A stretch of 64,000 bases of DNA from a virus (Duplodnaviria > Heunggongvirae > Uroviricota > Caudoviricetes), in IMG/VR virus record IMGVR_UViG_3300014204_006651, positions 16,416 through 80,415 of that record. One strand, written 5' to 3'. Shown one piece after another: positions 13,973 through 35,511 of this stretch. How positions within the stretch are numbered: the stretch's first letter is position 1; every line of letters begins with the position of its first letter. A program made the translations under genes and the position numbers. The notes beneath the pieces were generated by a model that was not told where the DNA came from, did not search any database, and saw only the letters and a list, made by a program, of their open reading frames with translations.

Positions 13973-13994
13973 TATTTAATATTATATAAATATA

Positions 13995-14456: not shown

Positions 14457-14744
14457 ATGTCAAAAAATTTAACAACTGAAGAATTTATAAATAAAGCAAA
14501 ATTAAAACATAGTAATAAATATAATTTTGATTTTTATCTTCCTAAAAATAATCTATTGATAGAATTTGATGGTCAACAACATTTTAATATAATTAATTAT
14601 TGGGGAGGTATTGATAGATTTAAAAAACAGGAAATGATTAATGAAATTAAAAATAAATTTGCTAAAAAAAATAAGATAAATTTATTAAGAATTAAGTATA
14701 ATGAAATTAATAATATCGAAAATATTTTAAATAATAAACTATAA
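14457..14744 (+). CDS. small Vsr/DUF559-like endonuclease (homing-endonuclease-like) inserted between baseplate genes
   Basis: LLIEFDGQQHF ... LLRI resembles the DUF559/Vsr core. It sits between the gp25-like and J-like genes, and its stop overlaps the next ATG. Confidence 0.4.
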   Translation: MSKNLTTEEFINKAKLKHSNKYNFDFYLPKNNLLIEFDGQQHFNIINYWGGIDRFKKQEMINEIKNKFAKKNKINLLRIKYNEINNIENILNNKL

Positions 14745-16855: not shown

Positions 16856-17302
16856 ATGATAGTAAGTGGAACATCATATAGTAGATTGAGCGAATTGGAA
16901 ACATATAAAGTAAATCCTACATATTTAACAAAATATATTTCTGGTGGATCAATAAGTAAAGATGGTTTAGATTATACTAAATCTATTGAAAATGCTTATT
17001 ATATATATTATATTGGTGGAATAAGATATGTTGATACCATTATTAATCAAAATACTACAACTACTATATATAGTTTTACAACATATGGTACAAATAGTCC
17101 CAATTTTATTAATGTACCAATGTTTAAAAATCCAAATAAGGAAAGAATAATTAGCAATCCAAAAATTGATGATGATGTATTTATAATTAGACAAGAAATA
17201 TCGGCATTTGATAAAAATTATAAATTAGAATTTATTAGAAGTCTTGTAGATTTAGAAACATATGCTGGTGGAAATTTTTTTAATATCATAAAAAATAGTT
17301 AA
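16856..17302 (+). CDS. hypothetical baseplate/tail-associated protein
   Basis: 148 aa in the structural operon. Its position is analogous to P2 gpI. Confidence 0.4.
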   Translation: MIVSGTSYSRLSELETYKVNPTYLTKYISGGSISKDGLDYTKSIENAYYIYYIGGIRYVDTIINQNTTTTIYSFTTYGTNSPNFINVPMFKNPNKERIISNPKIDDDVFIIRQEISAFDKNYKLEFIRSLVDLETYAGGNFFNIIKNS

Positions 17303-17441
17303 ATATGGCAAACCAATATAATAGAAAAGAATATAAAAAATCAGAAATTAATGAAATAATTTCATTATATCAATCTGGTGTTTCATTTTCTAAAAGAACA
17401 AAATGTTCAATAAATAAAGAAGAATTAATAAATATATAAAA

Positions 17442-18347
17442 ATGGCTATTTCTACTTATGGTGTTGTTCGTCCCGCAGATGTAAATATTAATGATATTGA
17501 TATTTATTATAATTATACCCCTGATAGACAAACATCTAATGATAATATATTTAAAATTGAATCACCAAGTGATTTATTATCTTATTGTTATTTACCTGAT
17601 ACTGAACAAGTATTGGGTTTTGAAAATTTATTAGAGGGTCTATATAATTTAAGATTACCTGCATCAACATTCAATCAATTAGGTATTTATACAATTTATA
17701 TAAAACCTAAAGTATTTTCTATTGAAATTATTGATTGTAGTGTTTTATCCGCATTACCGTCAGTAAAGGGAATTGTGGTTAATGTTAATGATTTACCCGA
17801 AACAGCAAAAGCAAATAATGCATTACAGGGTTATCGTATTGAATATATAAATTCTGATGGAACTAAACTTCGAAATGTTGTTCGATATATAGTAACATCA
17901 AATAAAGTAATTGCAGTTAGTGAAAATATTGGTAATACAAGTCAAAAATCACAAAGATATCGTTTTGATGATTCTGGTTCGTTAATGTTTTTACAATTAA
18001 CACCAAGTAGTTCATCAGATGTTAAACCAAATACTTTTCCATTTATTGGAACTCCGGGGCAAGTAATGTTATTATCAAACACCTTTTTTACTCCATTAAC
18101 ATTGGAAATTGAATTAGTTGAAAATACTATTGATACTTTGACAGAAATTATTGCAGGTGAAGAAATTAAAGACGTTCAAAAAGGTATTTTAACACATTAT
18201 GATAAAAATAGAGTAATAACAAAACAGTTTAACTTATATGAAGTAAAAGAAGATACTATTGATGTACCGCTTTACGAAGTTAAAGAAAAGAGAATAAATA
18301 TAGACGATACACAAAACTTTGACGACATTACAAGTGAAGTACAATAA
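17442..18347 (+). CDS. hypothetical structural protein
   Basis: 301-aa ORF in the late operon. Confidence 0.45.
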   Translation: MAISTYGVVRPADVNINDIDIYYNYTPDRQTSNDNIFKIESPSDLLSYCYLPDTEQVLGFENLLEGLYNLRLPASTFNQLGIYTIYIKPKVFSIEIIDCSVLSALPSVKGIVVNVNDLPETAKANNALQGYRIEYINSDGTKLRNVVRYIVTSNKVIAVSENIGNTSQKSQRYRFDDSGSLMFLQLTPSSSSDVKPNTFPFIGTPGQVMLLSNTFFTPLTLEIELVENTIDTLTEIIAGEEIKDVQKGILTHYDKNRVITKQFNLYEVKEDTIDVPLYEVKEKRINIDDTQNFDDITSEVQ

Positions 18348-18356
18348 ATTAAAATA

Positions 18357-19079
18357 ATGGATGAAATATTTCCTTTAGTTAGTTGTCTGATGGTTACCAG
18401 AGCAGCTAATATGAAAATTATAGATAATGCATTATATTCATATATTAATCAAACGTATAAAAATAAGGAACTTATAATCATCACTGATTGTGAATCTAAA
18501 AATTTGGATGATCTGAAAATACTTTTAAATGATTATTCAGATGAAAATATCAAACTTATTTATTTAAAAGAAAAATTAAAAATGGGTGCATTAAGAAACG
18601 TATCTATTGATAATGCTTCTGGTGAATATTGTATTCAATGGGATGATGATGATTTATATCATGAAGAAAGAATTGAAAGACAATATTTAGAATTAATTAG
18701 TGGTGATTATGATTATTGCTTACTTAAAGAATTTACGATGTATTTTTATAATACACATTTATTGTCAACAAACAGATGGTATGATGATTTCATATCAGGA
18801 TTGCCACCATCAATTATGTTTCGAAAAAATATGAAATATAGATATCCTGATAATATTCAGTTTAGTGAGGATATTGTAATAGGTAATCAACTAAATTTAA
18901 AATATTCAATACTTTCTGATTTACCATATTTATATGTTTATACATATCATGGTTATAATTCATTTGAATATCAACATTATTTAAAATTATATAGAGAAAC
19001 AAAAATAAATTTTAATGAAGAAATTATTGAAAAAATAATATCTTTACTTAACTATAAAAATCTTGATTATAGGTTTTAA
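18357..19079 (+). CDS. GT2-like (GT-A fold) glycosyltransferase, tandem paralog 1
   Basis: N-terminal PLVSCLMVTRAAN ... YINQTYKNKELIIITD resembles the GT2 opening (SVIIPTYN ... QTY ... EIIVVDD). There is a DxD-like QWDDDDLYHE. Confidence 0.45.
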   Translation: MDEIFPLVSCLMVTRAANMKIIDNALYSYINQTYKNKELIIITDCESKNLDDLKILLNDYSDENIKLIYLKEKLKMGALRNVSIDNASGEYCIQWDDDDLYHEERIERQYLELISGDYDYCLLKEFTMYFYNTHLLSTNRWYDDFISGLPPSIMFRKNMKYRYPDNIQFSEDIVIGNQLNLKYSILSDLPYLYVYTYHGYNSFEYQHYLKLYRETKINFNEEIIEKIISLLNYKNLDYRF

Positions 19080-19090
19080 ATTTTAAAATA

Positions 19091-19810
19091 ATGGATGAAA
19101 TATTTCCTTTAGTTAGTTGTCTGATGGTTACCAGAGCAGCTAATATGAAAATTATTGATGGTGCATTATATTCATATATTAATCAAACATATAAAAATAA
19201 GGAACTTATAATTGTACCTGATTGTGATGTAAAAAATTTAGATAATTTGAAACGTCATTTAGATAATTATAAAGACGAAAACATTAAATTAGTAGAATTA
19301 AAAGAAAAATTAATGTTGGGTTCATTAAGAAACGTATCTATTGATAATGCTTCTGGTGAATATTGTATTCAATGGGATGATGATGATTTATACCATGAAA
19401 GAAGAATTGAAATGCAATATCAAGAAATTATTAGTGGTGATTATGATTATTGCTTACTTAAAAATTTTATGATGTATTTTTATAATACATATTTATTATC
19501 AATAAACAGATGGTATGATGATAAGTTAGGTGGTCAACCACCATCAATTTTATTTAAAAAAGATATTAATTTTCGATATCCAAAAATTCCACTTCATGAA
19601 GATATTGCAATAGTAGAACGTACTGATTTGAAAAGATGTATACTTGACGATAAACCATATTTATATATTTATACATATCATGGAAATAATTGTTATGATT
19701 ATCAACACTATCTTAGTTTATATTCTGCAACAAAAATGACATTTGATATTGAAATTCTTGATCAGATTACTCCCTTACTTGATTATATATGTCTTAATTA
19801 CAGATTTTAA
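19091..19810 (+). CDS. GT2-like glycosyltransferase, tandem paralog 2
   Basis: The first 66 nt are essentially identical to gene 18357 (ATGGATGAAATATTTCCTTTAGTTAGTTGTCTGATGGTTACCAGAGCAGCTAATATGAAAATTAT). The rest is about 60-65% identical at the protein level. Confidence 0.45.
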   Translation: MDEIFPLVSCLMVTRAANMKIIDGALYSYINQTYKNKELIIVPDCDVKNLDNLKRHLDNYKDENIKLVELKEKLMLGSLRNVSIDNASGEYCIQWDDDDLYHERRIEMQYQEIISGDYDYCLLKNFMMYFYNTYLLSINRWYDDKLGGQPPSILFKKDINFRYPKIPLHEDIAIVERTDLKRCILDDKPYLYIYTYHGNNCYDYQHYLSLYSATKMTFDIEILDQITPLLDYICLNYRF

Positions 19811-19864
19811 TTATAACACACCAATCTTTTTTGTTTTATTGTATTTATATGAAACATTAAAATT

Positions 19865-22800
19865 GTGGGAAAAGTAAAAGTTGTAAATAACAATCTTAAT
19901 TCGAATTTAAACGGTACAAATTTTAATAATACTCCTTCTGAAACAATATTTTCATTTGGTAGGTTTTCGGTTACTTCGAATTTTGATAAAAGAGAACATG
20001 TTGATTATTCCACACAGTTAAGCACATTTGTTAATCCTGTTACTTTAGAAACTATGGGTATTTCAGATATACAATCTGAAATTTTATACAACTATTCAAC
20101 TAATGCTGTTTTAAACCTTGATAAATCTGATTTAAAAACTTTTGTTAAATTTGGTTCAGCATATGAATTTTTAAGAGTATCGATTGAAAACATTATTTTA
20201 AAATATCCCGGAAGTTTATTTTTAAGTTCAAAAGTTGCACAATTTGGAAATTATACAATTAGTGATTTTTCGTATGATTTAGTAACAAATACATCAATAT
20301 TTAAAATTCCAATTAATAGTATTATTAATAAATTCAATTTAATTTATAATTATGTTAATTTAACTGGTACTACCAACGAATCAAAAGATTTAAATATTTC
20401 ATATAATAATTATATAGTATGGTCATCAATTGATTCAGAAAATAATAATCATACAGTAATTGGTTATACTGGAAATACTTCTGGACAACAATATTTAACT
20501 GTTAAAGTAATTGGAAATCCATTTCCAACCATTACTGGCACAACTGGTTATATTGATTTTCATATTAAACCAAATAGTAATATTTTTGAAGAATTTAGAG
20601 CACAATTAAATGAATATGAAAAATATTTAATTTCTCAAAGGAATGGTGTAACTGGTTTTAAATGTACAATGAAAGACCCAACGTTGCTTGATGATGGAAA
20701 CGTTGTATATGTTGATACTACCATTTTATGGACAACTGCTGATCAATATAATATTGATATAGATACACCAAATTATAGAAAATTTTTAGAAATTATTCTA
20801 ACTATTGGTAGTAAATATGATTCGATTAAAACTGATTTAATTGCCAGATTTTTAACACCTCAATCAATTAAAACATATGATCTTACTGATCGTGGAAAAG
20901 TAACTAAATTATTAAGAATATATGGTAGAGAATTTGATGAATTAAGACAATTTATTGATTCTCTTGTTTATATTAATAAAGTTACATATAATAAAATTAA
21001 TAATGCTCCAGATCAAATTATAAAAAATCTTGCAAAAACATTTGGGTGGGATCATTTTTCATTGGTTAATGAAACTGAATTAGTTGATAGTATTTTATCT
21101 ATTGATGATCAAGAAAGAAATTTAAATACTGATTTAATTCCAGTAGAAATTGATATTGAACTTTGGCGAAGAATTATAATTAATACGAGTTATTTTTGGA
21201 AAAGTAAAGGTACTCGTGAAGCAATAAAATCAATATTTTTAATAATAGGTATACCCGAACCGTTTATTAATATTACAGAATATATTTATACTGTTGAAGG
21301 TAAAATAAATCCAAATACTGTTCCTTTAACTACAACCGATTTTCCTTCAAATTCATTACCTTATGATACTGAAGGATATCCAATTGCACCAATAGAAACG
21401 AATAATTTTTATTTTCAAATGTCCGGGAATACCGATAGTGGTCAAGCATATCTTGATGTATTTCGTTTAGCTGGTTTTAATTTACTTCAGACTATTGATA
21501 ATAAAAAATCATGGATACAAACTGGTGCAACAATAAGACAACACTATTTAACTCCACAGTATTATCAAGAAGATAGTAAATTAGTTATTAATACTAAAGA
21601 GATTGATGTTTCTTTAGATGTTGCACGTGGTATTGAATATGATGTATATCAATACATAAAAAATGTTGATTTTCCAGCAAATTCTGCAGGATATGTACTT
21701 TCATATAATTATGTTAATATTTCTTTGGGTGTAGGTACACAACAAAATACGTTCACAATTCCTTTTAAATCTGAAGGAGATATTGAAGTTCGTTTTAATG
21801 GAATATTATTAAATGCTCCTAAAACCGGAACGACCACAGGAATAACTTATCAAGCCGATTATATGATTTCTGGTAATTCAATTGTTTTAGCGAATGGTAT
21901 ATATGCCAGAAATGTTGGAAATCGTAGGGATGTTGTGCAAATAACCCAATTATATACTGGTTCAACAGCAACTCCATTGTCTGGAATTACTGTACAGTAT
22001 ATGGTCACAAGAATTAATGCAAGTATGTCAGGTACTGTTATTCCATTACCAACATATGCAAGTGGTGATGTACAACTAACTGTTAATGGTATTTCACTTA
22101 CAAAAGGAACTGGTCAATTTAATGCAGATTATATTGTTGATCCAAATAATACTAATCAACTTATTATTCAAAATCCGGAAGTTATTTCGTACTTAGCTGT
22201 TAATCCAATGATTCAAGTCGCTTATGTGACTGTTAGTGGTAATACAACCATTGCTGCAAGAAGTGAAGTTTTAAGAATTGATAGTTTTAATAGTGGAAAA
22301 ATATATTATAATAATTCTGCAAATAAATATGTTTATAAATTAAATTATAAACTTAATAATGCCAACGAAGTTAAGATTTTAATTGATGGTATTGGATTAG
22401 AACCAAATACTGACTATACTTTAAATACAGGGAATCCATATGAAATTTATTTACCAAGAGGATTAAAATACGGGAGTGTAATTAGTGCATATTATCTTAT
22501 TGGTGGTACAGATTACTTTGCTCCGGTAATTGGAGAAAGTTTTGGTATTGGCGATATTAGTCAATTATCATTTCTTGAATTTCTTATATTAATGGAACAG
22601 AGAATGATAAATGCAACAAATAGGAAAACTGTTACCGATAGTAAAGGTGGTTGGTATCCAACATTATTAAGAGTATATATTGATTATCTTAATAGATCAA
22701 AACTTCCATTAAGTGATTCATTACATTCAAATGGTTATACTTTTGAAAATTTATATCCATTTTTAAGTAAATATAATGCGTTCTTTCAAAGATTTATTGA

Positions 22801-23596
22801 TCAATTATTATCAGCAACTATCATTCTAAGAAAATCTGGTTTGCTGGTTAGAAATAGTATATTTACTAAACAAAAATTTACATACAAACGTGGTGTTAAT
22901 ATGGGTGCTATTGTTAGTCGCACTTCAGATGGATATACTGTTTTTGAAGAAGATTCAAATTTATTTTATTTTGGTGACGATGGTAGCATATTTTTAAAAA
23001 GACCATTATCTAAAAATATTGAATGGACTGAAGATAATGTTAAAATTGTTAATTTATGTACAAATTTTATTGTAAGTGGAATTACAATTACATATCCTGT
23101 AACAACAACCACAACAACTGCTACACCGTTTAGTTCAACAATTATGTTGTATCAAACGAATTTTATACAAAACTCAATTAATTCAAATAAAGGAATATAT
23201 AGATTGGTGGAATATAATCTAAGATTTAATCCAGACATACCGCCTTCATATGCAGTTACATTTAATCTTAATTTTGAAATTATATTAAGTGGATTAACAA
23301 ATCCAACATATGGTGAACATACTGCAAAAATAACAATTCGTAAAAATTCAACTCAAATTGGTAATGTAATTTTATATCAAAATGATGGAACTTATTATTT
23401 AACTGGTACTACAGTTACAGTAATTAATAGTGAATCATTATTTATTGTTTTAGAAAATACTGCAACAGCAAATGGAATAAATCCAATTAGTTCAAAAACA
23501 ATATTAACCCCAATGGTTTCAAACGTTGCACCAAGTATGGGCGAATTTACGATTATTCCACCTTATGTTGAAACAATTCCAATTAATGTACCATAA
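19865..23596 (+). CDS. large tail-fibre/baseplate-distal structural protein
   Basis: 1243 aa, rich in Asn/Thr/Ser, with a VTTTTTTATPFSS linker. It is preceded by the promoter motif at 19841. The GTG start is uncertain. Confidence 0.5.
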   Translation: MGKVKVVNNNLNSNLNGTNFNNTPSETIFSFGRFSVTSNFDKREHVDYSTQLSTFVNPVTLETMGISDIQSEILYNYSTNAVLNLDKSDLKTFVKFGSAYEFLRVSIENIILKYPGSLFLSSKVAQFGNYTISDFSYDLVTNTSIFKIPINSIINKFNLIYNYVNLTGTTNESKDLNISYNNYIVWSSIDSENNNHTVIGYTGNTSGQQYLTVKVIGNPFPTITGTTGYIDFHIKPNSNIFEEFRAQLNEYEKYLISQRNGVTGFKCTMKDPTLLDDGNVVYVDTTILWTTADQYNIDIDTPNYRKFLEIILTIGSKYDSIKTDLIARFLTPQSIKTYDLTDRGKVTKLLRIYGREFDELRQFIDSLVYINKVTYNKINNAPDQIIKNLAKTFGWDHFSLVNETELVDSILSIDDQERNLNTDLIPVEIDIELWRRIIINTSYFWKSKGTREAIKSIFLIIGIPEPFINITEYIYTVEGKINPNTVPLTTTDFPSNSLPYDTEGYPIAPIETNNFYFQMSGNTDSGQAYLDVFRLAGFNLLQTIDNKKSWIQTGATIRQHYLTPQYYQEDSKLVINTKEIDVSLDVARGIEYDVYQYIKNVDFPANSAGYVLSYNYVNISLGVGTQQNTFTIPFKSEGDIEVRFNGILLNAPKTGTTTGITYQADYMISGNSIVLANGIYARNVGNRRDVVQITQLYTGSTATPLSGITVQYMVTRINASMSGTVIPLPTYASGDVQLTVNGISLTKGTGQFNADYIVDPNNTNQLIIQNPEVISYLAVNPMIQVAYVTVSGNTTIAARSEVLRIDSFNSGKIYYNNSANKYVYKLNYKLNNANEVKILIDGIGLEPNTDYTLNTGNPYEIYLPRGLKYGSVISAYYLIGGTDYFAPVIGESFGIGDISQLSFLEFLILMEQRMINATNRKTVTDSKGGWYPTLLRVYIDYLNRSKLPLSDSLHSNGYTFENLYPFLSKYNAFFQRFIDQLLSATIILRKSGLLVRNSIFTKQKFTYKRGVNMGAIVSRTSDGYTVFEEDSNLFYFGDDGSIFLKRPLSKNIEWTEDNVKIVNLCTNFIVSGITITYPVTTTTTTATPFSSTIMLYQTNFIQNSINSNKGIYRLVEYNLRFNPDIPPSYAVTFNLNFEIILSGLTNPTYGEHTAKITIRKNSTQIGNVILYQNDGTYYLTGTTVTVINSESLFIVLENTATANGINPISSKTILTPMVSNVAPSMGEFTIIPPYVETIPINVP

Positions 23597-23607
23597 AAAA
23601 ATTAAAA

Positions 23608-24522
23608 ATGAAAATATTAGTAGTATTACCGGATCATAGTTACTTCTTATGGCAAATGCTTGTTCAAATTAATAATTTTAGAAAATTTGATATGGAAAAT
23701 GATGCCATTTTTTTAATTGGAAAAAGATCAATTGAATTAAGTAAAACTCTTATGAAAATTTTAAATGGAAACATAAAAAGTGAATTTCATGTTATAAACG
23801 ATACCAGAGAAAATCCACAATATTCTTCTTCAATGAGACCTCATATATTAGCCAAATTTTTCGATGAACATCCAGAAATGGAACATCAAACATTTTTATA
23901 TATTGATCCCGATGTATTATTTACTAAAAAATTTAAAACTGGTAATTTAGAAAAAACAAATACTTGGTATTTAAGTGATACACGTTCATATATTGATAGT
24001 CGATACATTAAAAGTAAAAGCGAAACATTGTTTTATGAAATGTGTAATATTGTAAATATTGATCCAAAAATTGTAGAAGATAATGATGAAAATGCAGGTG
24101 GTGCTCAATATGTTATGAAAAATGTTAGTACTGATTTTTGGAAAAAAGTTGAATGGGATAGTGAAAATTTATTTATTCATATGATAAATACATCACATAA
24201 ATATTCACCGGAACATCCAATACAAGCATGGACTGCTGATATGTGGGCAGTTTTATGGAATGCGTGGCTTTTTAAACATGAAACTAAAATAATGAAAAAT
24301 TTAAATTTTTCATGGGCAACTGACCCAATAGAAAGATGGAATGAAACAACTATTTTTCATAATGCAGGTGCAGTTATAAATAATGGTATTCATTTTTTAA
24401 AAACTAAATATCAGGTTTCACCATTTAATAAGGAAATTAAATGTAGTGATGAATATTGTGGATATAATTACCTTAAAGAAATAAAAGAAACTGAAAAAAC
24501 ATTTTCAAAAATATTATTTTAA
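23608..24522 (+). CDS. putative nucleotide-sugar transferase (DxD motif)
   Basis: FLYIDPDVLF has a DxD within a hydrophobic context typical of GT-A transferases. The assignment is weak. Confidence 0.35.
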   Translation: MKILVVLPDHSYFLWQMLVQINNFRKFDMENDAIFLIGKRSIELSKTLMKILNGNIKSEFHVINDTRENPQYSSSMRPHILAKFFDEHPEMEHQTFLYIDPDVLFTKKFKTGNLEKTNTWYLSDTRSYIDSRYIKSKSETLFYEMCNIVNIDPKIVEDNDENAGGAQYVMKNVSTDFWKKVEWDSENLFIHMINTSHKYSPEHPIQAWTADMWAVLWNAWLFKHETKIMKNLNFSWATDPIERWNETTIFHNAGAVINNGIHFLKTKYQVSPFNKEIKCSDEYCGYNYLKEIKETEKTFSKILF

Positions 24523-24524
24523 TC

Positions 24525-26855
24525 ATGAAAGATAATGCAAGAAAATACATATTAAAAACAAGTGAAATAATTAGTTGTGGAATTGGAACTAATTATACAA
24601 ATGTTACTTGTAATAGTTTATTGAATTCATTTACGTTAGATGATGTTAATACATGCTGTATTTGTTGTATCAATACTTCCACATGTGGTTGTGAAGTAAT
24701 AAATTCATATCCTGCAATTACTACAGAACAATTATCATCATTATCAGTAATTGATTATGATAGAAGAGTTATTGATTTTTTAGATAATTTTCAAATCGAA
24801 AGTGAAATAACAAAAGAAAATTTATTTAATAATGCAAGTTATTATAATCCAACATATTATGCTGAACTTAATTTATTAAATTCAGATTTTATTGTTTATA
24901 AAATTTTTGATAATGGAATTCGAATAATTAATGCTGGTCAAGCAAATGGTATATTGGAATATAGAGTATCTGGTGTAACGTATAATTCAGGATGGCAAAC
25001 CAATCCTTCATTTTTTGGTTTAGATTATAATAAAATATATAATTTTGAAATTCGTGATTTTTATAATAATATTGAAATATATAAATATTCAAAATTAGTT
25101 TCACTAAATTATATATTGGCAAGTACAACAACAACATTACCAATTAAAACAATTAAACTTACACAAACTGGCACATATAAGAATAATGCTTATTGTAGTA
25201 AATATGGTGTGATAACAGTAACACCACCATTAATTGTTGGTGAAACAATAACATTAAATATTCTTGCAAATGCATTAACTATTGGTAATGGTGGATCATC
25301 TTCAATATTTTTCAATTGTGATACAACAACTACACCATTTTGTAAAATTAATTCATATGAAGTTGAAAAAGTTGGTGAATTAACTTATTCATATGGTACA
25401 ACTTTAAAATATACTATTCAAGCTAATTGTGGTACTTATGGTTCACAATCAACAGCTAATTTTTGTTTAAAAACAATTAATGGTTATGGAACATTTACAC
25501 CAACAATAGATTCTACAAGTTGTTCTGTTAATATAACTGTTAATGTACAACCTTTAAATATTACAATGAGTTTTGGTACTCCAACATCAAAAATTTCAAC
25601 AACTACTGATTGTGTTATTTGTGGTTCATTTATCATGTCACCAGTAATACCTGCAGGTGAATGTATTAATATTCATTTAACGGGTATTAATCCAGTACAG
25701 GGCGGTACATCAACAACTTATATTATTTGTAAACCTTCGGGTGGCATTGAAACACCTATTGTTACATTAAATAGTTCATCATTACAATTTCCAATTGTTA
25801 ATATGAAATACGGTGATATTATGAAATATTGTATGTTGTTAAATGTTCCAAGTGCAGGATATTGTGCTTCTGGAATATTGAATTTAATTTGTGGTGATGG
25901 TTCTATTGGTGTTAATCCTTCAGTAACAATCGCAACAAGTAGTACTTGTTGTTATTGTTCTTGTAGTGATGTAGGTAGTTGTTGTATTAATAAAACGATT
26001 AATATTCCCAATGTTCCAATATCCATTGCTCTTTGTGCACTTGCTGGTGGTAATAATAGTGAAAATGGAAATATTACAATTACTCCTGCAATGACATATG
26101 CAACACAATATGCAACAGTAATTTATAATCTTACTCAGGCTTCTGTTTGGGGTGGATCAAGTACTTTCACATTAAATTGTAAACCAAAAGGCAGTGCAAA
26201 TTATGTTCAAAAAATATTACATACGACTACTTCAGTAAATGGTGAAAATAATACAAATACATTTACTGGATCATTTACAATAAATCAGGGTGATGCGTTC
26301 ACATATTGTACATTAGTTTATGGTAATAATTGTTCATGTAGTGATTTTTGTATGACTTCAGTACTTGGTAGTATTGGAATAATTCCTTCAATTAATTCTA
26401 CAAAATATAGAAGTTGTCGTAGTCTTTATACTGCTCCGGTTTCGAAAGTAGTTTCACTTTGTAGTATAAATGGTTGTATTGGTTGGGAAGCTGGTTGTTT
26501 TTGTATAACACCTGTCATGAGTAATAATTGTCAAAGTATTGATATTTATTATAAACTTACTGAATTTGTTAATAATGGTACAAATACTGTTAATATTTGT
26601 TGTGCTTCAAGTAGCTCTGGTTGTTCTATACCTGTTATTAAATGTACACATACTTTAACAAATTCAAACACTTATGGAAATAATTATACTGGTTGTATTA
26701 GAGTTTGTTGTGGTGATATATTAACTTATTTTATGTGTACAACTGGACAAGCTGGTTCATGTAATGATTTATGTATTTGTAAATTAACAAGTAGTCCTGA
26801 TATTACTGCAACAATTTCATCAACATGTTGGAGAAAATGTTACGTAAAATCATAA
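24525..26855 (+). CDS. Cys-rich, Thr-rich fibre-like structural protein
   Basis: 776 aa with more than 60 Cys, including a CCICCINTSTCGCEV cluster, plus a TTTTLPIKT linker. Its start overlaps the upstream stop. Confidence 0.5.
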   Translation: MKDNARKYILKTSEIISCGIGTNYTNVTCNSLLNSFTLDDVNTCCICCINTSTCGCEVINSYPAITTEQLSSLSVIDYDRRVIDFLDNFQIESEITKENLFNNASYYNPTYYAELNLLNSDFIVYKIFDNGIRIINAGQANGILEYRVSGVTYNSGWQTNPSFFGLDYNKIYNFEIRDFYNNIEIYKYSKLVSLNYILASTTTTLPIKTIKLTQTGTYKNNAYCSKYGVITVTPPLIVGETITLNILANALTIGNGGSSSIFFNCDTTTTPFCKINSYEVEKVGELTYSYGTTLKYTIQANCGTYGSQSTANFCLKTINGYGTFTPTIDSTSCSVNITVNVQPLNITMSFGTPTSKISTTTDCVICGSFIMSPVIPAGECINIHLTGINPVQGGTSTTYIICKPSGGIETPIVTLNSSSLQFPIVNMKYGDIMKYCMLLNVPSAGYCASGILNLICGDGSIGVNPSVTIATSSTCCYCSCSDVGSCCINKTINIPNVPISIALCALAGGNNSENGNITITPAMTYATQYATVIYNLTQASVWGGSSTFTLNCKPKGSANYVQKILHTTTSVNGENNTNTFTGSFTINQGDAFTYCTLVYGNNCSCSDFCMTSVLGSIGIIPSINSTKYRSCRSLYTAPVSKVVSLCSINGCIGWEAGCFCITPVMSNNCQSIDIYYKLTEFVNNGTNTVNICCASSSSGCSIPVIKCTHTLTNSNTYGNNYTGCIRVCCGDILTYFMCTTGQAGSCNDLCICKLTSSPDITATISSTCWRKCYVKS

Positions 26856-26893
26856 ATTAAAATTAATTGTATTTATGTTAAAGTCTAAATAAA

Positions 26894-29182
26894 ATGGCAT
26901 TTATTGATAAAAAAGACCCTGTAGTACTTAATATTAAATTAACTTCAAAAGGTAGGGAGTTATTAGCTAAAGGATTATTAAATTTTAAATATTTTATTAT
27001 TGGTGATAGTGAAATTGATTATGAATTTAATGGTTCAAAAAATGATGATGATTATATTAATCCATTTTATTCAAATATTTTAAGACCTGCAGATAAAAAC
27101 CCAAATATTATTTCTTTTATAACTAAAAATTTATCTGGTGATAAATACAACACAATTTCAAGTATTCCAGTAACACCAACGAAAATTAGTAACACAATAC
27201 AACCTCTTGGATTTTTTAATATATCAAATAATAGTACAAATTTTCTTACAGATACTGATCATGTTAAACAACCGGATGTTATGATTGAAATTTCTGGAGT
27301 TACTGGTGGAACAATAATTTCTGGTATAACATATAATTTTTTAAAATTAAAAAAATCGCCAACATATGTGGCAAATGTTAATGAACCAACAATTGGTGAT
27401 TTAATTTTAGTTAAATGGACAAATCCTTATGGAATTAATACTACGGGATATACTGTTAATATAAATAGTCCAACACCATATATAATTTATAAAATTCAGG
27501 AAATTGTTTCAGGAAAATTATCTACCGATAATTTAAAAATAATTGTGGATAGAGAATTACCTAATTTTACCGGAATAACTGGTGGTTCAAATACTATTGT
27601 TGCAGGTGCATTGATTTATTATAATTATCTTAATTTTACTGGTGAAACAGCGTATACAAATTATTCTACTGATTTTGTTGATGAAAGTGTTTTATCATTT
27701 TTACAAAATTGTCAATGTCCAACAATTACTTTTCCATTTTGGAATATGTCAATAATTTATACTGATGAAATTATTGGTGTTCAAAACGACAATAAAACAT
27801 TTAAAAGTTTTAATTCAAATGCTTATGGTGGTTTTGTGTCTTATATTCAAAATCAAGCAAAAAATGATGTAAATTATAAAAAGAAATTAGGAGTAATTCA
27901 TTATTCAAATTCTTCACCATCTAATACATATGCTGAAGAATTTTCAATGGTAAATGCAACTAAATTACCAACATTATATTTACCGACAATAATGTGGCAT
28001 AAATCAACGGGCAGTACAATGGGTTTAATTTTAAAACCAACTGGTTCTGTAAAATTAGTGACAGGTGCTACAACATCATTAAATACACCCTATTACGATT
28101 TAGTTGATGAAAGTGGTAATGTTGTCGGTAAAATATTTAACGATCTTAAAATATTTGTTATTGAAGATCAGGAATTATTATTTGCAATGTCATATAAATC
28201 AAATAGATCGTGGACATTACCTGATTATACTGTTGGTGTAAATGATAATATTTTAGTTGGTTGTCTTGATTGTACTATTGATTATTTAACTGGTGTTACA
28301 ATACCTACAAAAATTAGTTATGCTGATGCTAAATTATATATTTCAGGTATTACTGGTACTATTCCTGTAGATGAAGGTGATTCAATATTGATTCTTTCTG
28401 TTAGTGGAACAAGTGGATATGTTTATTTCCATCCAATTACTGGAGATACTATAGTAACTGGTTTAACTTCTGGAAATTATGAAATAATGCTTTATGATAC
28501 GGCTGCTGCTAATTGTCCAGTAAAACTAATTACAATTTTAAATCCAACAAGTTATTTAAATTTTACATCAGTTTTACGTAATCCAATTGATTTAAATCCG
28601 GATTTTGGAATTAATTATGTAACTACACCTACAAATATTCGTGTATTATATAATGATATTGGTAAAATTTATGGTAAAGCATTAATAGCTGTTGCACCAT
28701 ATAGTGAAATTTCTGCTGCACCAGTTTCAAGTAGTTCGAGTTGGAAAACATTTCCAACAATTGGTTATGCATCATGGACAACTGAACTTGTTTATAAAAA
28801 TTCATATTCATTTTATTTACGAGATAGTGGTACTACTGCGGGTACTTTTACTATAAAAAAAGATTATGTTCTAATTCCTAATCCATTTAATTCCGCATTT
28901 ACGGTATCTGGTCAATTAGTAGATGCTGGTGGTAAATATGTAAGGGTTACCAATTATAAAAATACTGATTATTTAACAATAATTCCATCGGTGGTTATTG
29001 CAGAAATTAGTATATATAAATCAAATTCAGTTCCTGTTGTATGGGAAACAGTTGTATCAAGCAATTCTCAAAAAATATATCCTAAAGATGGTGCTGGTAT
29101 ATATAAAATAGCATTGAGAGTAAGAAAAAATAAAATAACACAATTTGTAACTACTTATAGTAATACAATAATAATTACTTAA
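26894..29182 (+). CDS. fibre-like structural protein
   Basis: 762 aa, preceded by the promoter motif at 26869. Confidence 0.5.
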   Translation: MAFIDKKDPVVLNIKLTSKGRELLAKGLLNFKYFIIGDSEIDYEFNGSKNDDDYINPFYSNILRPADKNPNIISFITKNLSGDKYNTISSIPVTPTKISNTIQPLGFFNISNNSTNFLTDTDHVKQPDVMIEISGVTGGTIISGITYNFLKLKKSPTYVANVNEPTIGDLILVKWTNPYGINTTGYTVNINSPTPYIIYKIQEIVSGKLSTDNLKIIVDRELPNFTGITGGSNTIVAGALIYYNYLNFTGETAYTNYSTDFVDESVLSFLQNCQCPTITFPFWNMSIIYTDEIIGVQNDNKTFKSFNSNAYGGFVSYIQNQAKNDVNYKKKLGVIHYSNSSPSNTYAEEFSMVNATKLPTLYLPTIMWHKSTGSTMGLILKPTGSVKLVTGATTSLNTPYYDLVDESGNVVGKIFNDLKIFVIEDQELLFAMSYKSNRSWTLPDYTVGVNDNILVGCLDCTIDYLTGVTIPTKISYADAKLYISGITGTIPVDEGDSILILSVSGTSGYVYFHPITGDTIVTGLTSGNYEIMLYDTAAANCPVKLITILNPTSYLNFTSVLRNPIDLNPDFGINYVTTPTNIRVLYNDIGKIYGKALIAVAPYSEISAAPVSSSSSWKTFPTIGYASWTTELVYKNSYSFYLRDSGTTAGTFTIKKDYVLIPNPFNSAFTVSGQLVDAGGKYVRVTNYKNTDYLTIIPSVVIAEISIYKSNSVPVVWETVVSSNSQKIYPKDGAGIYKIALRVRKNKITQFVTTYSNTIIIT

Positions 29183-29184
29183 TT

Positions 29185-30408
29185 ATGTCAAGTATTCAAT
29201 ATAAAATTTGTGGTAATAAACCACCATTTCTTGCACAAGTTTGGAACTGTACAGAAACAACAATTATTCAACAAAAAGGTGTTGATTTTTCTGGTACTTG
29301 TGTAGTATTTAATGGATTATCTCCAAGTACATGGCATTGTGTAAAAACAATTGATAATATTGGTAAAGTAATTGGTTTTAGTTGCTGTACTTGTGCAGCA
29401 ATCATTCCTAAAGTTTTAGTTTCAAAAACATTATCATTATATGGTACAGTTTCCAATATTTCAACATCAAGTACTATTGTTGGAACAAGAACACTTAATA
29501 TAAATCCTGTGTTGGTTGCAAGTGATGATTATTCAGTTAAATTTAATATTATAACTTGTGATAAAGGAAACACTTCAAATCTTGTTAGGTTATATTGTAA
29601 TGGTACTGCTTTAAGTCCATATTATTTAAACACGAATAATACTTGTTCTCGTACTCTTTCTTTAAATTATGGTGATACTTTAACGTATGATATGGCTACA
29701 ACATTAACCAATACTTCAACAACTGTTGGTTGTGGTTGTGCAATACTTCAAATTGTTAGTGGTGCAAGTAGTGCATTTCAACCAGTGGTTTCTACAACCG
29801 CTTATTGTAAAAAAACATCTCTAACCTTGGCTTCAACAACTACTACTACTACTACTACTACAACTGCTGCCCCATCATTAATATATGTTGGATTTACAAT
29901 ACCACATATTAATATTAATAGTAGTATTGAAAAATCATATTATACAACATTAAAAACATCAAGACCATTAATTGAAGGACAATCATTTAAATTAAAAATA
30001 AATTCATTTGCACTTGTTGATGCACATGATGCATTATTTCATAAATCAAGCGCATGTGTAGCATATTATTTAAATACTGTAAAACAAGTATGTGGTGAAG
30101 TAGTTAAGATAGTTAATAATTCCGGATATGCCCATTCACCTTTAAATGCAATTTCATATATTACGATAAATAATTGTAATATTAATAATTTTATTTTTTG
30201 TGTTAATGCTTGTGGCAATGTTGGAAATACTCAAACTTGTAGTAGTGGAATAATTCAAATTCAAGGAATTTCAGAAATGGTCGGTGGTTGTTTCACATAT
30301 AATTCAAATTCTCAAGATTATCGTACATTTGTAAAAGCAGAATATAAGAGTGATCCTTTTAATCTTGATGATCCATATCCATCAGGTGCAATACCAACAC
30401 CAGAATAA
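29185..30408 (+). CDS. Cys-rich fibre-like protein with a poly-Thr linker
   Basis: 407 aa with ASTTTTTTTTTTAAPS and many Cys. Confidence 0.5.
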   Translation: MSSIQYKICGNKPPFLAQVWNCTETTIIQQKGVDFSGTCVVFNGLSPSTWHCVKTIDNIGKVIGFSCCTCAAIIPKVLVSKTLSLYGTVSNISTSSTIVGTRTLNINPVLVASDDYSVKFNIITCDKGNTSNLVRLYCNGTALSPYYLNTNNTCSRTLSLNYGDTLTYDMATTLTNTSTTVGCGCAILQIVSGASSAFQPVVSTTAYCKKTSLTLASTTTTTTTTTTAAPSLIYVGFTIPHININSSIEKSYYTTLKTSRPLIEGQSFKLKINSFALVDAHDALFHKSSACVAYYLNTVKQVCGEVVKIVNNSGYAHSPLNAISYITINNCNINNFIFCVNACGNVGNTQTCSSGIIQIQGISEMVGGCFTYNSNSQDYRTFVKAEYKSDPFNLDDPYPSGAIPTPE

Positions 30409-30419
30409 AATTAAAATAA

Positions 30420-31379
30420 ATGGCAACAGTAATATATACAATAGCTGGTGGAGTAGCACCCTTTACTGTGGAATTAACACCAAGTTTAATTCCAATTAAT
30501 ACTCATCTTTCAATTGGTACTTTTTCATTTACTAATGTGGAAAATGGGGATTATACACTTGTTATTACAGATTCAAATGAATGTGTGTATGAATATCAAC
30601 TTACTGTTGATCCTTTTGTTACTACGACCACAACAACAGTAATCCCCGGTAATAATATTATTGTTGGTCAAATACAAGACCCTATATTAATTTTTAATCC
30701 TAATTCAACAAATCGAAGTAATCATTATTTTGGTGATACTTTAACAGATACTAATATAACACTTTATTTGTGGTTTAAAACATTAGATGGCAAACCATTA
30801 ACATCGTCAAAAACCATTAATTATTCAATTAATGCTATTGGTGAAATTCTTAATACTTCAACTACTGGTGCTACAATTGGTTCAGGATATACCGATAATT
30901 TTATTGATAATTCTTATTTGGGAGTAACTTTATTGACAACTGGAATTACAGGTGTTTCATTTAATGGTTTGATAAAAATTAGTAGTACTGAATATGAGGG
31001 AATTTCATATGCATTTACTGCTATGACTATAACAGGCACAAGTGGTACAGTTTATGTAATTCCTACACAATATACTGGATTATCATATAATGCTAATAGT
31101 AAATTTACATATCTTGGAGTTAGTGATGAAATACATACTGAAGTCACTGAATTAATAAGTGGTGCTGCAACTACTATTTATGGTAACATTAAATTTAAAA
31201 AAGATTTCATTGAAACATATTTTAAATATAAATATCAAAAAGATTTATTTTTACCAGATTTTCAAATTGATTTGAATGCATCTACTTTATGGCTTTCACC
31301 AAATATTCCAATTGTGGATGGAACAAAAATTTATGGTGTAAATTATATTGATAGAGATAATGTAATAATGAAATTTTAA
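30420..31379 (+). CDS. fibre-like structural protein
   Basis: 319 aa with a VTTTTTTVIPG linker. Confidence 0.5.
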   Translation: MATVIYTIAGGVAPFTVELTPSLIPINTHLSIGTFSFTNVENGDYTLVITDSNECVYEYQLTVDPFVTTTTTTVIPGNNIIVGQIQDPILIFNPNSTNRSNHYFGDTLTDTNITLYLWFKTLDGKPLTSSKTINYSINAIGEILNTSTTGATIGSGYTDNFIDNSYLGVTLLTTGITGVSFNGLIKISSTEYEGISYAFTAMTITGTSGTVYVIPTQYTGLSYNANSKFTYLGVSDEIHTEVTELISGAATTIYGNIKFKKDFIETYFKYKYQKDLFLPDFQIDLNASTLWLSPNIPIVDGTKIYGVNYIDRDNVIMKF

Positions 31380-31394
31380 CTATTTATAAATAGT

Positions 31395-32150
31395 ATGATA
31401 AAAGGATATACAGTATTTTTTAGTTATGTTTTAGAAACGAATTCAGGTTATGGATATAGCACAGCAATTCACTGTAATTACATCAACAGTCTTTATTTGG
31501 ATTCTATTACAAATAAAGAAGTGAATATTTATTTTAATAATGTTGATGATTTTAAATATTTGTCAAATAATATTAATGGTGGAACTGGATATACCGTAAA
31601 TAAAATTTATTTATTAATTCAACTTATTAATAATTCAACATATACTAATTTAAATACAATAAAACCAGTTGCTAATGAGTGGAGAAAATACGAAGTAACT
31701 GATCAAATTATAGATTATTTTAGTGGTTATACTACAGGAGAATCATTAACACCAACATATTTATGTGGTAGTATTTTTAAAGTTCCAATTTATAAATATA
31801 ATACAATGTCAATTTATAATTTGGATTATTTAAATTACCCTTCAATTACTCAAGCAGAATTGAAGGGTGTAGATGCTCCACTTTGTTTTGGTGATGAACA
31901 ATATTTTATTGGAAATGTTTCTGCAGATGCAGAAGCAATAGCATATACAACTGATCTTGCCATTAGTTTACCACTTAATCAATATAATTCCACAACAAAT
32001 CCAACTTGGGATCATCTTTCTGAGGTATATATAACTGAAATTGGGTTATATGACAGTACTAAAAAATTAGTGGCTATTGGTAAATTAAATGATCCTGTCC
32101 CTAAAAATTCAACCATTTCCAGAACAATAGTATTTGGTCTTGATTTTTAA
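31395..32150 (+). CDS. structural protein (fibre distal or assembly)
   Basis: 251 aa, preceded by the motif at 31380-31388. It is the last gene of the structural run. Confidence 0.45.
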   Translation: MIKGYTVFFSYVLETNSGYGYSTAIHCNYINSLYLDSITNKEVNIYFNNVDDFKYLSNNINGGTGYTVNKIYLLIQLINNSTYTNLNTIKPVANEWRKYEVTDQIIDYFSGYTTGESLTPTYLCGSIFKVPIYKYNTMSIYNLDYLNYPSITQAELKGVDAPLCFGDEQYFIGNVSADAEAIAYTTDLAISLPLNQYNSTTNPTWDHLSEVYITEIGLYDSTKKLVAIGKLNDPVPKNSTISRTIVFGLDF

Positions 32151-32234
32151 TTTAAAATAATCATAAAAATTTATATTTTTTTATAAAAACTTAGTATTTA
32201 TTATAAATGAAAAATAAAAAAATTTATAATATAT

Positions 32235-32438: not shown

Positions 32439-32458
32439 AAAAATTACATAAATATTTT

Positions 32459-35497: not shown

Positions 35498-35511
35498 TTA
35501 CATTGATAATT

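Follow-up and report, generated by a model that had tools for sequence, protein, structure and literature searches.

Does a phage that carries glycosyltransferase genes among its tail fibre genes put sugars on its own particle, or do the enzymes serve another purpose? The question is raised by 64,000 nucleotides of an uncultured virus (IMG/VR record IMGVR_UViG_3300014204_006651, positions 16,416 to 80,415; this whole stretch is referred to below as the window). A preliminary description proposed that phage transferases glycosylate threonine linkers of virion proteins. Our analysis gives this strong comparative support for one enzyme, a GT8-like protein, through co-variation of its gene with poly-Thr of neighbouring virion genes in two unrelated lineages and across 16 enzyme lineages. 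From the sequence, we assign a probability of roughly 0.6 to the reading that the operon carries a cassette that would O-glycosylate the phage's own distal fibre proteins.

Baseplate and fibre operon

The span 17442–32150 consists of ten co-directional ORFs with intergenic gaps of 2–54 nt (all genes described here lie on the + strand). This tightly packed late structural operon encloses all three transferase genes and contains no strong internal terminator. It sits downstream of a gp25-like baseplate wedge or sheath-initiator gene (14058..14453; PF04965 GPW_gp25, 4.5e-10), itself the next gene beyond a strong terminator-like hairpin (13994–14021; 12-bp stem), and of a gene for a 610-aa gp6-type baseplate wedge protein (14744..16576). 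The latter was identified by tblastn to annotated wedge proteins, matching the "baseplate wedge protein" of Flavobacterium phages at 27–28% over 98% of its length. It has relatives at 79 IMG/VR loci (62–78% identity) and served as the anchor in our synteny comparisons. Gp25-like and gp6-like genes ahead of fibre genes are the arrangement of a contractile-tail baseplate wedge module, and we read the span as the baseplate/fibre operon of an uncultured myophage of about 327–330 kb. Flavobacterium phage immuto shows a matching gene order, ending in genes annotated as tail fibre and tail spike; it is such synteny that suggests a virion location, and an identity as receptor-binding fibres, for the module proteins.

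Four further proteins of the module are conserved. A 148-aa protein with no assigned role (16856..17302) has a homolog in nearly all related loci and carries a T4 run at residues 67–70. The 301-aa baseplate-module protein (17442..18347), which matches neither Pfam nor PHROG, has a homolog in every related locus (55–80% identical). Homologs of the 762-aa fibre-module protein (26894..29182) occur in most related loci (45–68% identity), both with and without the GT8-like gene, and a homolog of the 251-aa last gene (31395..32150) closes the module in most of them. Thr runs are absent from the 301-, 762- and 251-aa proteins.

Transferase genes

Two genes had been called GT2-like, and both match PF00535 far above the 23.3-bit cut-off, at 53.4 and 54.0 bits. 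Copy a (18357..19079; 3.8e-14) encodes 240 aa and is predicted to be soluble, and its tandem paralog, copy b (19091..19810; 2.5e-14), encodes 239 aa. The proteins are 71% identical, with 83% identity over residues 1–120 and 59% from residue 121 to the end, and the DNA repeat is 88% identical at its 5′ end and 72% at its 3′ end; the two are old tandem paralogs. Both contain W-D-D-D-D-L at residues 95–100, an acidic DxD-type metal/nucleotide motif that follows the N-terminal Rossmann-like half (DDDD at 96–99 in copy a). Among PDB sequences, copy a matches heparosan synthase and GalT1 of Fap1 glycosylation (2.9e-7). Apart from the window, the pair was seen at a single related locus, L082, which keeps both copies; because only two loci have it, the pair lacks a statistical link to poly-Thr. 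The GT2 enzymes would presumably still take part in glycosylation.

Copy a also matches TuaG, EpsE and WcaA weakly. These are polysaccharide builders, and the resemblance is consistent with an alternative in which the transferases modify glycans of the host envelope, be it LPS, capsule, teichoic acid or S-layer glycan, in the course of infection, for example masking receptors against superinfection, and the poly-Thr tracts are flexible hinges that stay unmodified. PHROGs gives weak GtrB-like matches (1e-4), and phage glycosyltransferases that alter host serotype are described as well known (PMC12619734). Gtr-type serotype conversion shares with our phage a GT2 gene, but it involves a membrane GtrB, a GtrA flippase and GtrC, and neither a flippase nor a GtrC-type partner is encoded in the operon. 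TM segments are absent from all three enzymes (maximum 19-residue hydropathy 1.2–1.4), and their genes lie inside a structural operon of lytic type. We consider this alternative unlikely, the more so in view of the co-variation described below.

The third enzyme, a 304-aa protein (23608..24522; phrog_4417), had been described as a DxD transferase. It has no Pfam match at E ≤ 0.1, the GT8 model PF01501 included, and no NCBIfam match, and a profile search of PDB sequences returned nothing relevant; its identity as a transferase comes from a structure model. That confident model (pLDDT 94.9) shows a GT-A fold, and the solved structures it most resembles are retaining enzymes of GT8 type, several of them active on proteins; sequence identity to the PDB neighbours is ~10%. 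It places the DxD motif, D100-P-D102, directly after the strand at 95–99. D100-P-D102 and H251-N-A-G254 are invariant, and D100, D102, H251 and K265 are so across 32 sequences; the DxD and the downstream His are candidate ligands of Mn2+ and the nucleotide sugar. Because PF01501 misses the protein, its donor and mechanism are extrapolated from the fold, and retaining transfer from a UDP-hexose would be expected of a GT8 enzyme; unlike glycogenin, LgtC and Gat1, it has an extra C-terminal helical part of ~50 residues. The GT8-like family comprises 761 clusters at 50% identity; it is widespread in phages and has no name, and its members are annotated only as hypothetical. Fusions link some homologs to GT2, Glyco_transf_7C or methyltransferase domains; one fused GT2 resembles the GT2 of the window (4e-7), and the fused GT2 of P0147 also has WDDDD.

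Outside the operon, an 834-aa ORF (9159..11663) had been taken for a GT-B gene with an intein. The intein is there, a splicing domain with an embedded homing endonuclease (Intein_splicing 1.4e-12, LAGLIDADG_3 2.8e-21), but the spliced extein reaches only 22.9 bits against Glyco_trans_1_2, below the cut-off of 25, and is thus weakly GT-B-like; a role in glycosylation would be speculative. This gene touches on a further alternative, that the transferases glycosylate bases of the phage DNA and so evade restriction. Many phage glycosyltransferases are reported to modify DNA (PMC12619734), and the window shows only 64 kb of a genome of ~327 kb. T4-type DNA glucosylation pairs GT-B enzymes with a hydroxymethyl-pyrimidine pathway; the operon enzymes are GT-A, the extein at 9159 is weakly GT-B-like, and the window contains no hydroxymethylase or other base-modification gene. 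DNA modification would also give no reason for the co-variation with poly-Thr or for genes placed in a structural operon, and we regard it as very improbable.

Poly-threonine tracts and cysteine-rich proteins

Poly-Thr is less widespread in the module than first reported. The four tracts originally quoted are present in the proteins named, but runs of at least five Thr occur in three proteins rather than in six consecutive ORFs. The first is a 1243-aa baseplate/fibre protein (BIG; 19865..23596), in which a conserved body (residues ~1–1044) is followed by a T6 hinge at residues 1080–1085 (nt 23102–23119) and a variable distal domain. Homology to all relatives ends at ~1043–1060, and poly-Thr at this conserved/variable junction is confined to loci that have the GT8-like gene. 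The second, a Cys-rich 407-aa protein (29185..30408; 20 Cys, 4.9%), has a T10 hinge at residues 218–227 (nt 29836–29865), and its homologs keep T6–T8 at 232–239. Tract length is polymorphic here, with one ACT codon as the only indel in 21.5 kb relative to an independent assembly. The third, a 319-aa protein (30420..31379), has an N-terminal domain of 67 residues, then a T6 hinge at residues 68–73 (nt 30621–30638) and a variable C-terminal domain; homologs at 41–60% identity keep T6 at position 68–69. Among 5000 shuffles, runs as long were matched 3 times for BIG, never for the 407-aa protein and 16 times for the 319-aa protein.

The 776-aa Cys-rich protein (24525..26855) contains the motif CCICCINTSTCGCEV at residues 44–58, as described, and 52 Cys (6.7%) in place of the >60 first counted. 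An N-terminal domain, a conserved S-T-T-(T)-T-L-P hinge at residues 200–206 (nt 25125–25136) and four beta modules make up the protein, which a low-confidence structure model renders as all-beta beads. Its two T4 runs are compatible with chance (659/5000 shuffles). Across nine homologs S200, T201 and T202 are invariant, and C552 is the only invariant Cys. The beta modules are shared with the 407-aa protein (1.7e-7). Ser, Thr, Asn and Cys are abundant in the distal domains of the fibre-module proteins; any role of the cysteines is conjectural. Tract position is conserved while the flanks diverge to 26–60% identity, and the tracts are encoded by mixed codons, indicating selection on Thr itself.

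Co-variation of the GT8-like gene with poly-threonine

Within the phage family, loci were sampled through the wedge gene and scored for a run of at least five Thr in BIG. Such a run was present at all six loci with the GT8-like gene and at none of the 18 without it (p=7e-6). The relatives of the window that carry the gene may all belong to a single clade. An unrelated lineage behaved in the same way: in 20 loci that encode a major tail protein of phiFL1A type (Enterococcus phiFL1-type siphophages), the C-terminal tail GTTTTTT[RK]PTTTTTTTQx occurred at 9/9 loci with the gene and 0/11 without, and one tailed locus (83% backbone identity) sits among untailed loci at 80–88%. Over 16 enzyme lineages, defined as clusters at 60% identity, ORFs with at least five consecutive Thr made up 18 of 59 (31%) within two genes of the enzyme and 3 of 159 (2%) farther away (odds ratio 23, p=5e-9). 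All seven cultured phages and prophages inspected (Enterococcus phiFL1A and 9183, Lacticaseibacillus R3.3, Staphylococcus vB-SscS-F1, Chryseobacterium MA9V-3, one Bacillaceae prophage and one Weissella prophage) carry tails or linkers of poly-Thr on neighbouring genes for capsid, tail-tube or fibre proteins. In one enzyme lineage, the L097 group of 12 loci, poly-Thr was not found nearby.

Gain and loss of the GT8-like gene together with virion poly-Thr implies that the sugars most likely go onto the virus particle. Action on host glycans leaves unexplained both this joint behaviour in two unrelated lineages and the 23-fold enrichment of poly-Thr in ORFs close to the enzyme gene. In its favour, poly-Thr/Ser linkers occur in fibre-like ORFs of three relatives (L015, L017 and L033) with no GT8-like gene in the fetched stretch.

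Genetic linkage offers another account, in which the poly-ACN tracts and the GT8-like gene travel as one exchangeable cassette and the enzyme has a different substrate; the tracts might, for instance, be recombination joints for swaps of distal fibre domains. The BIG tract lies exactly at the recombination joint of conserved and variable parts, the distal BIG domain, the GT8-like gene and the Cys-rich proteins are present or absent as a unit, and tract length changes by codon slippage. Yet the mixed codons of the tracts fit this account poorly, and the neighbours of the enzyme gene are non-homologous between lineages. In the Gram-positive siphophages and prophages, moreover, several non-adjacent genes are tailed and only one adjoins the enzyme gene, as with the capsid and tail tube of phiFL1A and three genes of the Bacillaceae prophage. 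Those tails are at C-termini and not at domain joints. We think linkage of this kind improbable as the full explanation. The co-variation could partly reflect co-inheritance of a cassette.

A similarly low probability attaches to the idea that the GT8-like protein aids folding or assembly of poly-Thr proteins, or modifies some other site on them (Ser, Tyr or Cys of the distal domains) in place of the Thr run. Glycogenin-type relatives modify Tyr, UGGT recognises folding state, and the composition of the distal domains would provide other acceptor residues. Against this, the Thr run is the only sequence feature common to the very different capsid, tail-tube and fibre partners, and the catalytic-type residues are invariant.

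Relation to known glycosylation systems

Glycosylation of the particle by phage enzymes has a precedent in mycobacteriophages, for which glycans are reported on capsid and tail-tube subunits, at their C-termini (Freeman et al. 2023, Cell Host Microbe 31:1216, via PMC12619734 and PMC12582341). Both systems would tie phage-encoded glycosyltransferases, three in the operon of the window, to O-type virion glycans; in Gram-positive carriers of the GT8-like gene, too, the candidate acceptor extends the C-terminus of capsid and tail-tube subunits, and the methyltransferase partner in some fusions is a further likeness. The hosts differ, since ours are a low-GC uncultured jumbo-type myophage and phages of Firmicutes and Bacteroidota, and the 77 phage records that contain the GT8-like gene include no mycobacteriophage. 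Capsid and tail-tube genes lie outside the window; its candidate acceptor is a near-pure poly-Thr internal hinge of fibre proteins.

In Gram-positive bacteria, serine-rich-repeat adhesins are glycosylated first by GtfA/B and then by enzymes of GT8 and GT2 (GlyE and GalT1, for example). The operon has no Ser-rich SASA-type repeats, accessory Sec system or clear GtfA/B-type GT-B initiator, and its putative acceptor runs are of 4–10 Thr rather than hundreds of residues. Capsid and fibril glycosylation in giant viruses (PBCV-1 A64R, mimivirus R699) concerns eukaryotic viruses with other enzymes and glycan types, and those enzymes are structurally more distant from the 304-aa protein.

A proposed model for hinge glycosylation

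We propose the following acceptors, enzyme order, sugars and benefit for glycosylation of the fibre hinges. The soluble 304-aa GT8-like enzyme would draw on a nucleotide sugar within the cytoplasm of the infected cell, and may attach a sugar to hydroxyls of the poly-Thr hinges or extend a sugar already present; no genes for sugar-nucleotide synthesis were found in the 64-kb window. Candidate acceptors are the hinges at BIG 1080–1085, 218–227 of the 407-aa protein, 68–73 of the 319-aa protein and, probably, 200–204 of the 776-aa protein, which would connect conserved baseplate-proximal parts to fast-evolving distal beta-domains. The GT2 paralogs, whose donor-binding halves are alike and whose acceptor halves have diverged, could add further, probably beta-linked, sugars. 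Hinges glycosylated in this way may be stiff, protease-resistant and shielded. If this proposal is true, O-glycosylation of poly-Thr hinges in fibre proteins would be a new form of the virion glycosylation known from mycobacteriophages.

Genomic setting of the fibre operon

The window has a G+C content of ~25%. Its positions 14525-36000 are 99.98% identical to a 188,756-bp ENA metagenome contig, and proteins identical to those of the window are also present on a 327-kb contig. When 50,697 phage records were searched with the full region by megablast, no cultured phage proved close at the DNA level, and a tblastn search of the same records with BIG, the 1243-aa baseplate/fibre protein (19865-23596, + strand), returned no match. 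The presence of a gp25-like gene (14058-14453, + strand; PF04965) and a gp6-type wedge gene (14744-16576, + strand), whose product shares 27–28% identity with proteins annotated as baseplate wedge in Flavobacterium phages, places the region by homology in the baseplate module of a contractile-tailed phage. Relatives of the wedge protein at 62–78% identity occur on 79 IMG/VR contigs, several of them 200–360 kb long. The closest cultured phage by wedge protein is Flavobacterium phage immuto, which has the same gene order as the window: a baseplate protein, the wedge, two small genes, a ~1265-aa gene, several unknowns, and an annotated tail fibre and tail spike. From this shared gene order we infer, by synteny, that the window ORFs are putative fibre proteins.

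A strong hairpin-plus-T-run lies at 13994-14021, and the downstream genes through 32150 are all on one strand. Between 17442 and 32150, intergenic gaps are 2–54 nt and no convincing intergenic terminator was found; a sigma-70 promoter scan gave fewer matches than in shuffled sequence and was uninformative. Related loci have a common backbone of wedge, 148-aa (16856-17302), 301-aa (17442-18347), BIG, 762-aa-like (26894-29182), and 251-aa-like (31395-32150) genes, and their remaining genes are variable. The preliminary description had associated with the module a GT-B gene carrying an intein at 9159. The intein, with its LAGLIDADG endonuclease, is indeed there; the GT-B assignment is weak, the spliced extein giving only a sub-threshold match to a GT-B-type C-terminal domain. 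Given this match and the position of the 834-aa ORF (9159-11663) upstream of the terminator preceding the baseplate operon, we leave it outside the module. A free-standing LAGLIDADG endonuclease gene (8170-9156) lies immediately upstream of it.

Small homing-endonuclease-like genes (DUF559, T5orf172, and zinc-finger types) are found at 14457-14744, 2891-3748, and 33067-33375, and also in related loci L010, L025, L058, and others. Their scatter, with positions in the baseplate module that differ between relatives, suggests that the module attracts insertions by selfish elements. Just downstream of the fibre module are genes for an ECF-like sigma factor (35482-36105) and a 1118-aa fusion of a Mre11-type phosphoesterase with a Rad50-type ATPase (38199-41555). 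Upstream in the window, a polyvalent protein with GNAT and ART-PolyVal domains (982-2868), a CCA-adding/poly(A)-polymerase-type enzyme fused to 2H phosphoesterase domains (3741-5897), and a HAD_SAK_1 protein (5910-6806) together look like an RNA-repair or anti-defence cluster. At ~52000-54000, where coding passes from the + to the − strand, the GC skew flips from about +0.2 to about −0.17; this switch lies near genes for two cell-wall hydrolases, an amidase (49646-50467) and an M23 peptidase (53576-54490).

Poly-threonine tracts and cysteine-rich proteins

The ORFs and four Thr tracts first reported for this region are present in the sequence; the statement that six consecutive ORFs carry poly-Thr was too broad, because the 301-, 762-, and 251-aa proteins have no Thr run. 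Runs of at least five Thr occur in three proteins in the whole 64-kb window, all within this module. When each protein's own residues were shuffled 5000 times, the T6 of BIG (residues 1080-1085) was reached in three shuffles, the T10 of the 407-aa protein (29185-30408; residues 218-227) in none, and the T6 of the 319-aa protein (30420-31379; residues 68-73) in 16. By the same procedure the T4 runs of the 776-aa protein (24525-26855) are not unusual (659/5000); its S200-T201-T202, at a domain boundary, is invariant in nine homologs. The T10 tract (window 29836-29865) has a core of seven ACT codons; a second, independent ENA assembly of this phage has T9 there. This one ACT codon is the sole indel over 21.5 kb between the two assemblies, which otherwise differ at one position, a SNP at 19140 within the second GT2 gene. 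The length of a Thr tract is open to evolutionary change.

The 776-aa protein, initially credited with >60 Cys, contains 52 (6.7%), and the 407-aa protein contains 20. These proteins have modules in common, and the two Cys-rich proteins have nine and four homologs in a large protein database; searching IMG/VR by pattern for the 776-aa protein gave no match. Its CCICC motif falls in an N-terminal insertion common to one homolog only, C552 is the sole invariant Cys among nine homologs, and Cys content among relatives ranges from 3 to 8%. An AF2 model (mean pLDDT 56.9), which served for domain boundaries only, predicts with low confidence a string of beta modules with weak linkers between them, one being an STTTT hinge. 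A diversity-generating retroelement as the source of the non-conserved cysteines was rejected because no template/variable DNA repeat was found in 17000-33000 and no reverse transcriptase turned up in the Pfam scan of window ORFs, which covered about 40 of the 59 that are 100 aa or longer. The idea that the small N-terminal domains are SprB-type repeats was dropped, with no Pfam match at E ≤ 0.1. The cysteines seem to reflect the composition of distal domains that evolve fast. They may form disulfides after release, bind metal, or have no role, and nothing links them to glycosylation.

Glycosyltransferases of the module

The three TRANSFERASES of the module are two GT2 proteins (18357-19079 and 19091-19810; PF00535) and a 304-aa GT8-like protein (23608-24522, + strand), none of which has a detectable membrane segment. 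The two GT2-like genes (~240 aa each), noted as such from the outset, are clear members of that family. These tandem paralogs are 71% identical overall, with residues 1-120 at 83% and the remainder at 59%; their DNA is 88% identical over the 5′ 300 nt and 72% over the 3′ 185 nt. GT-A enzymes usually bind the acceptor with the half in which these paralogs diverge. The closest relative, locus L082 from a 357-kb contig, retains both copies, so the duplication is old and both are maintained. The GT2 pair was seen in these two loci only, and a GT2 query found no close relatives in IMG/VR or in cultured phages. By sequence, the nearest solved relatives are heparosan synthase, GalT1 of the Fap1 serine-rich adhesin pathway, and SpsA.

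The structure model of the 304-aa enzyme has as fold neighbours (structure and score in brackets) Skp1 alpha-galactosyltransferase (6mw8, 15.3), glycogenin (1zcu, 14.5), LgtC (1g9r, 14.3), the UGGT catalytic domain (6fsn, 14.0), pneumococcal GlyE (5gvv, 13.2), PBCV-1 A64R (2p6w, 10.5), and mimivirus R699 (9dyt, 10.1). The predicted fold matches retaining transferases, among which are several that modify proteins. The nearest predicted viral structures are uncharacterised Caudovirales proteins and Orf49 of Lactobacillus phage LP65, followed by giant-virus GT8 proteins. D100-P-D102, H251-N-A-G254, and K265 are invariant among the 32 sequences compared. The family has 710 matches in a 90%-clustered database, forms 761 clusters at 50% identity (E ≤ 1e-10), and occurs in 77 cultured phage records, mostly siphophages of Lactobacillus, Enterococcus, Staphylococcus, and Lactococcus along with one Chryseobacterium phage.

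Some family members are fused to other domains, in the arrangements GT2 + GT8-like, GT8-like + GT2, and GT8-like + galactosyltransferase-type domain. The GT2 half of one such fusion resembles the window GT2 genes, including the WDDDD motif, which gives some support to the GT2 pair and the GT8-like enzyme acting in one pathway. Methyltransferase + GT8-like and GT8-like + radical-SAM/SPASM fusions also occur (P0219 and P0148 are among the fused homologs), and hint at further modification chemistry tied to the enzyme. Separately, ten relatives encode DUF6734 proteins (PF20508; 290–309 aa) between the wedge and 148-aa genes (L007:12634-13506, L055:8868-9797, and eight others), whose ...HVDSDVFIFDD... 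motif looks like a DxD transferase and which have no obvious tie to Thr runs. Kinship of these ORFs with the GT8-like family was rejected for want of profile similarity (hhalign probability 0.1).

Co-occurrence of the GT8-like enzyme and threonine runs

Only some related loci have a homolog of the 304-aa enzyme next after BIG, and exactly those loci have a Thr run of at least five in BIG (6/6 with the enzyme versus 0/18 without; duplicates removed; Fisher p = 7e-6). Conservation of BIG extends over its first ~1044 residues in every relative, and the run, at residues 1034-1096, joins this part to a variable distal domain that in some loci is a separate ORF beginning with Thr runs. Enzyme-positive loci also have both Cys-rich genes and a 319-aa-like gene, with Thr-run positions kept (~232-239 and 68-69) between flanks only 26–60% identical. 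The association could be purely genetic linkage, the enzyme and Thr-run genes forming one co-inherited cassette, so we sought independent replicates and found four, counting the breadth of the enzyme family described above. There are counter-cases among the relatives, three distinct loci (L015, L017, L033) having fibre-like ORFs with T5-T15 runs and no GT8-like gene in the fetched stretch. Extra fibre-like ORFs between the wedge and 148-aa genes, likewise with no GT8-like gene in the fetched stretch, were seen at L010:12540-15122, L010:15122-16591, and L015:11827-14679; the first has a Thr/Ser-rich linker of ~130 residues followed by a weak cadherin-like match (27.4 bits, cut-off 28.8), and the last a T15 run and weak FN3-type matches below cut-off.

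Across the wider family, 66 IMG/VR loci were grouped into 16 enzyme lineages at 60% identity. A neighbour with a run of at least five Thr lay within two genes of the enzyme in 12 of the 16 lineages; with one locus taken per lineage, such ORFs made up 18/59 of those near the enzyme versus 3/159 of those more distant (odds ratio 23, p = 5e-9), and many are not homologous to anything in the window. In one apparent exception, L109, a 176-aa ORF three genes upstream ends TTTSTTTTTTTTTSTTTTTTTAGA. One enzyme lineage, the L097 group, has no Thr run nearby.

The pairing was present in every cultured phage or prophage inspected. In Enterococcus phage phiFL1A, the capsid-region protein gp45 ends GETTTTTKPTTTTTKPTTTTTTTQG and the major tail protein gp50 ends GTTTTTSTTTTTTSSTTTTTTTQASSK, with the enzyme gene gp51 next. 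Two structural proteins of Lacticaseibacillus phage R3.3 end ATTTTTTKAPTTTTTSSHA and VTTTTTTSHA, and a tail protein of Staphylococcus phage vB-SscS-F1 ends GETTTTTTTTTP and is followed by an ORF with four T6-T7 runs. The upstream 429-aa protein of Chryseobacterium phage MA9V-3 contains PPTTTTTTSTTTTTTSSTTTTTTAAP, a Bacillaceae prophage has three proteins with terminal Thr runs, and a Weissella prophage has a 117-aa ORF directly upstream with six T6-T8 runs. A scan of bacterial genomes gave only three loci because the search patterns were narrow. In Enterococcus phage 9183 a stretch coding for poly-Thr separates the capsid gene from the enzyme gene downstream of it. Here (L156:4786-4880, MT939241.1) the capsid gene ends ...GCC CCA AAA GGG TAG, its heptamer C CCA AAA is compatible with −1 slippage, and the −1 frame reads PKRVEPTTTTSTTKATTTTTSTSTSTTTTTLAEG* before the GT8-like gene. 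A fraction of capsid subunits may gain a poly-Thr tail by programmed frameshifting.

The phiFL1 group serves as a natural experiment. Among 20 IMG/VR loci with a major tail protein 64–100% identical to gp50, the poly-Thr tail was present in 9/9 with a downstream enzyme gene and 0/11 without, the enzyme-less proteins ending just after the common GETTGDY motif. A tailed locus, L173, has 83% backbone identity and falls amid untailed loci at 80–88%.

A putative virion O-glycosylation system

The enzyme gene and the Thr runs appear and disappear in step, and the capsid, tail-tube, and fibre proteins bearing the runs have nothing else in common; the simplest reading of this pattern is that the Thr run is the acceptor of the GT8-like enzyme. 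Alternatively, the transferases might modify host glycans or glycosylate DNA, or the enzyme might act at another site or as a chaperone; each of these, like pure linkage, explains the co-variation less directly than glycosylation of poly-Thr does. We give roughly even odds to the 304-aa protein representing an undescribed, widespread family of phage protein O-glycosyltransferases (the 761 clusters), with short poly-Thr as a portable acceptor tag added to whichever virion protein is to be decorated. The tag would sit at capsid and tail-tube C-termini in Firmicutes siphophages, once apparently via a −1 frameshift, and in fibre hinges in Bacteroidota-type and jumbo phages.

From the co-variation and the predicted retaining-transferase fold, we propose that poly-Thr hinges are O-glycosylated in the cytoplasm, prior to or during fibre assembly, and that the GT2 paralogs would extend the glycan. 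The starting enzyme, the sugars used, and the benefit are all inferred; the window shows no sugar-nucleotide genes. Glycosylation might benefit the phage by stiffening the hinge, by conferring resistance to proteases, or by masking against host or environmental binding.

According to PMC12619734, mycobacteriophages glycosylate capsid and tail-tube C-termini with phage-encoded transferases (Freeman 2023). The proposed mode of working resembles that system, and the proposed cytoplasmic glycosylation resembles that of serine-rich adhesins. There are three differences: the enzyme family here has no name and fits no curated model, a near-pure poly-Thr run serves as candidate acceptor, and in the window this run forms an internal fibre hinge. 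Searchable literature documented phage virion glycosylation for mycobacteriophages only, in which it protects particles against antibodies, and yielded nothing relevant on glycosylated capsids or tail tubes outside that group or on poly-Thr or Thr-rich phage proteins, and no paper tying the GT8-like family or poly-Thr tails to phage glycosylation; literature coverage is incomplete and this is absence of evidence only. The searched portion of the Jabs preprint (PMC13419713) does not mention glycosyl, glycan, or threonine.

If the proposal is true, virion glycosylation would be a general, sequence-predictable phage trait extending beyond mycobacteriophages. The signature of a GT8-like gene with poly-Thr would allow glycosylated virions to be predicted across hundreds of phage lineages, including cultured Enterococcus, Lactobacillus/Lacticaseibacillus, and Staphylococcus phages relevant to therapy and dairy fermentation, and would yield a minimal tag-plus-transferase pair with which phage particles could be engineered to carry glycan coats. 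It would also explain a recurrent low-complexity feature of phage structural proteins and, for the window, identify the parts of the fibre apparatus that are exchanged together.
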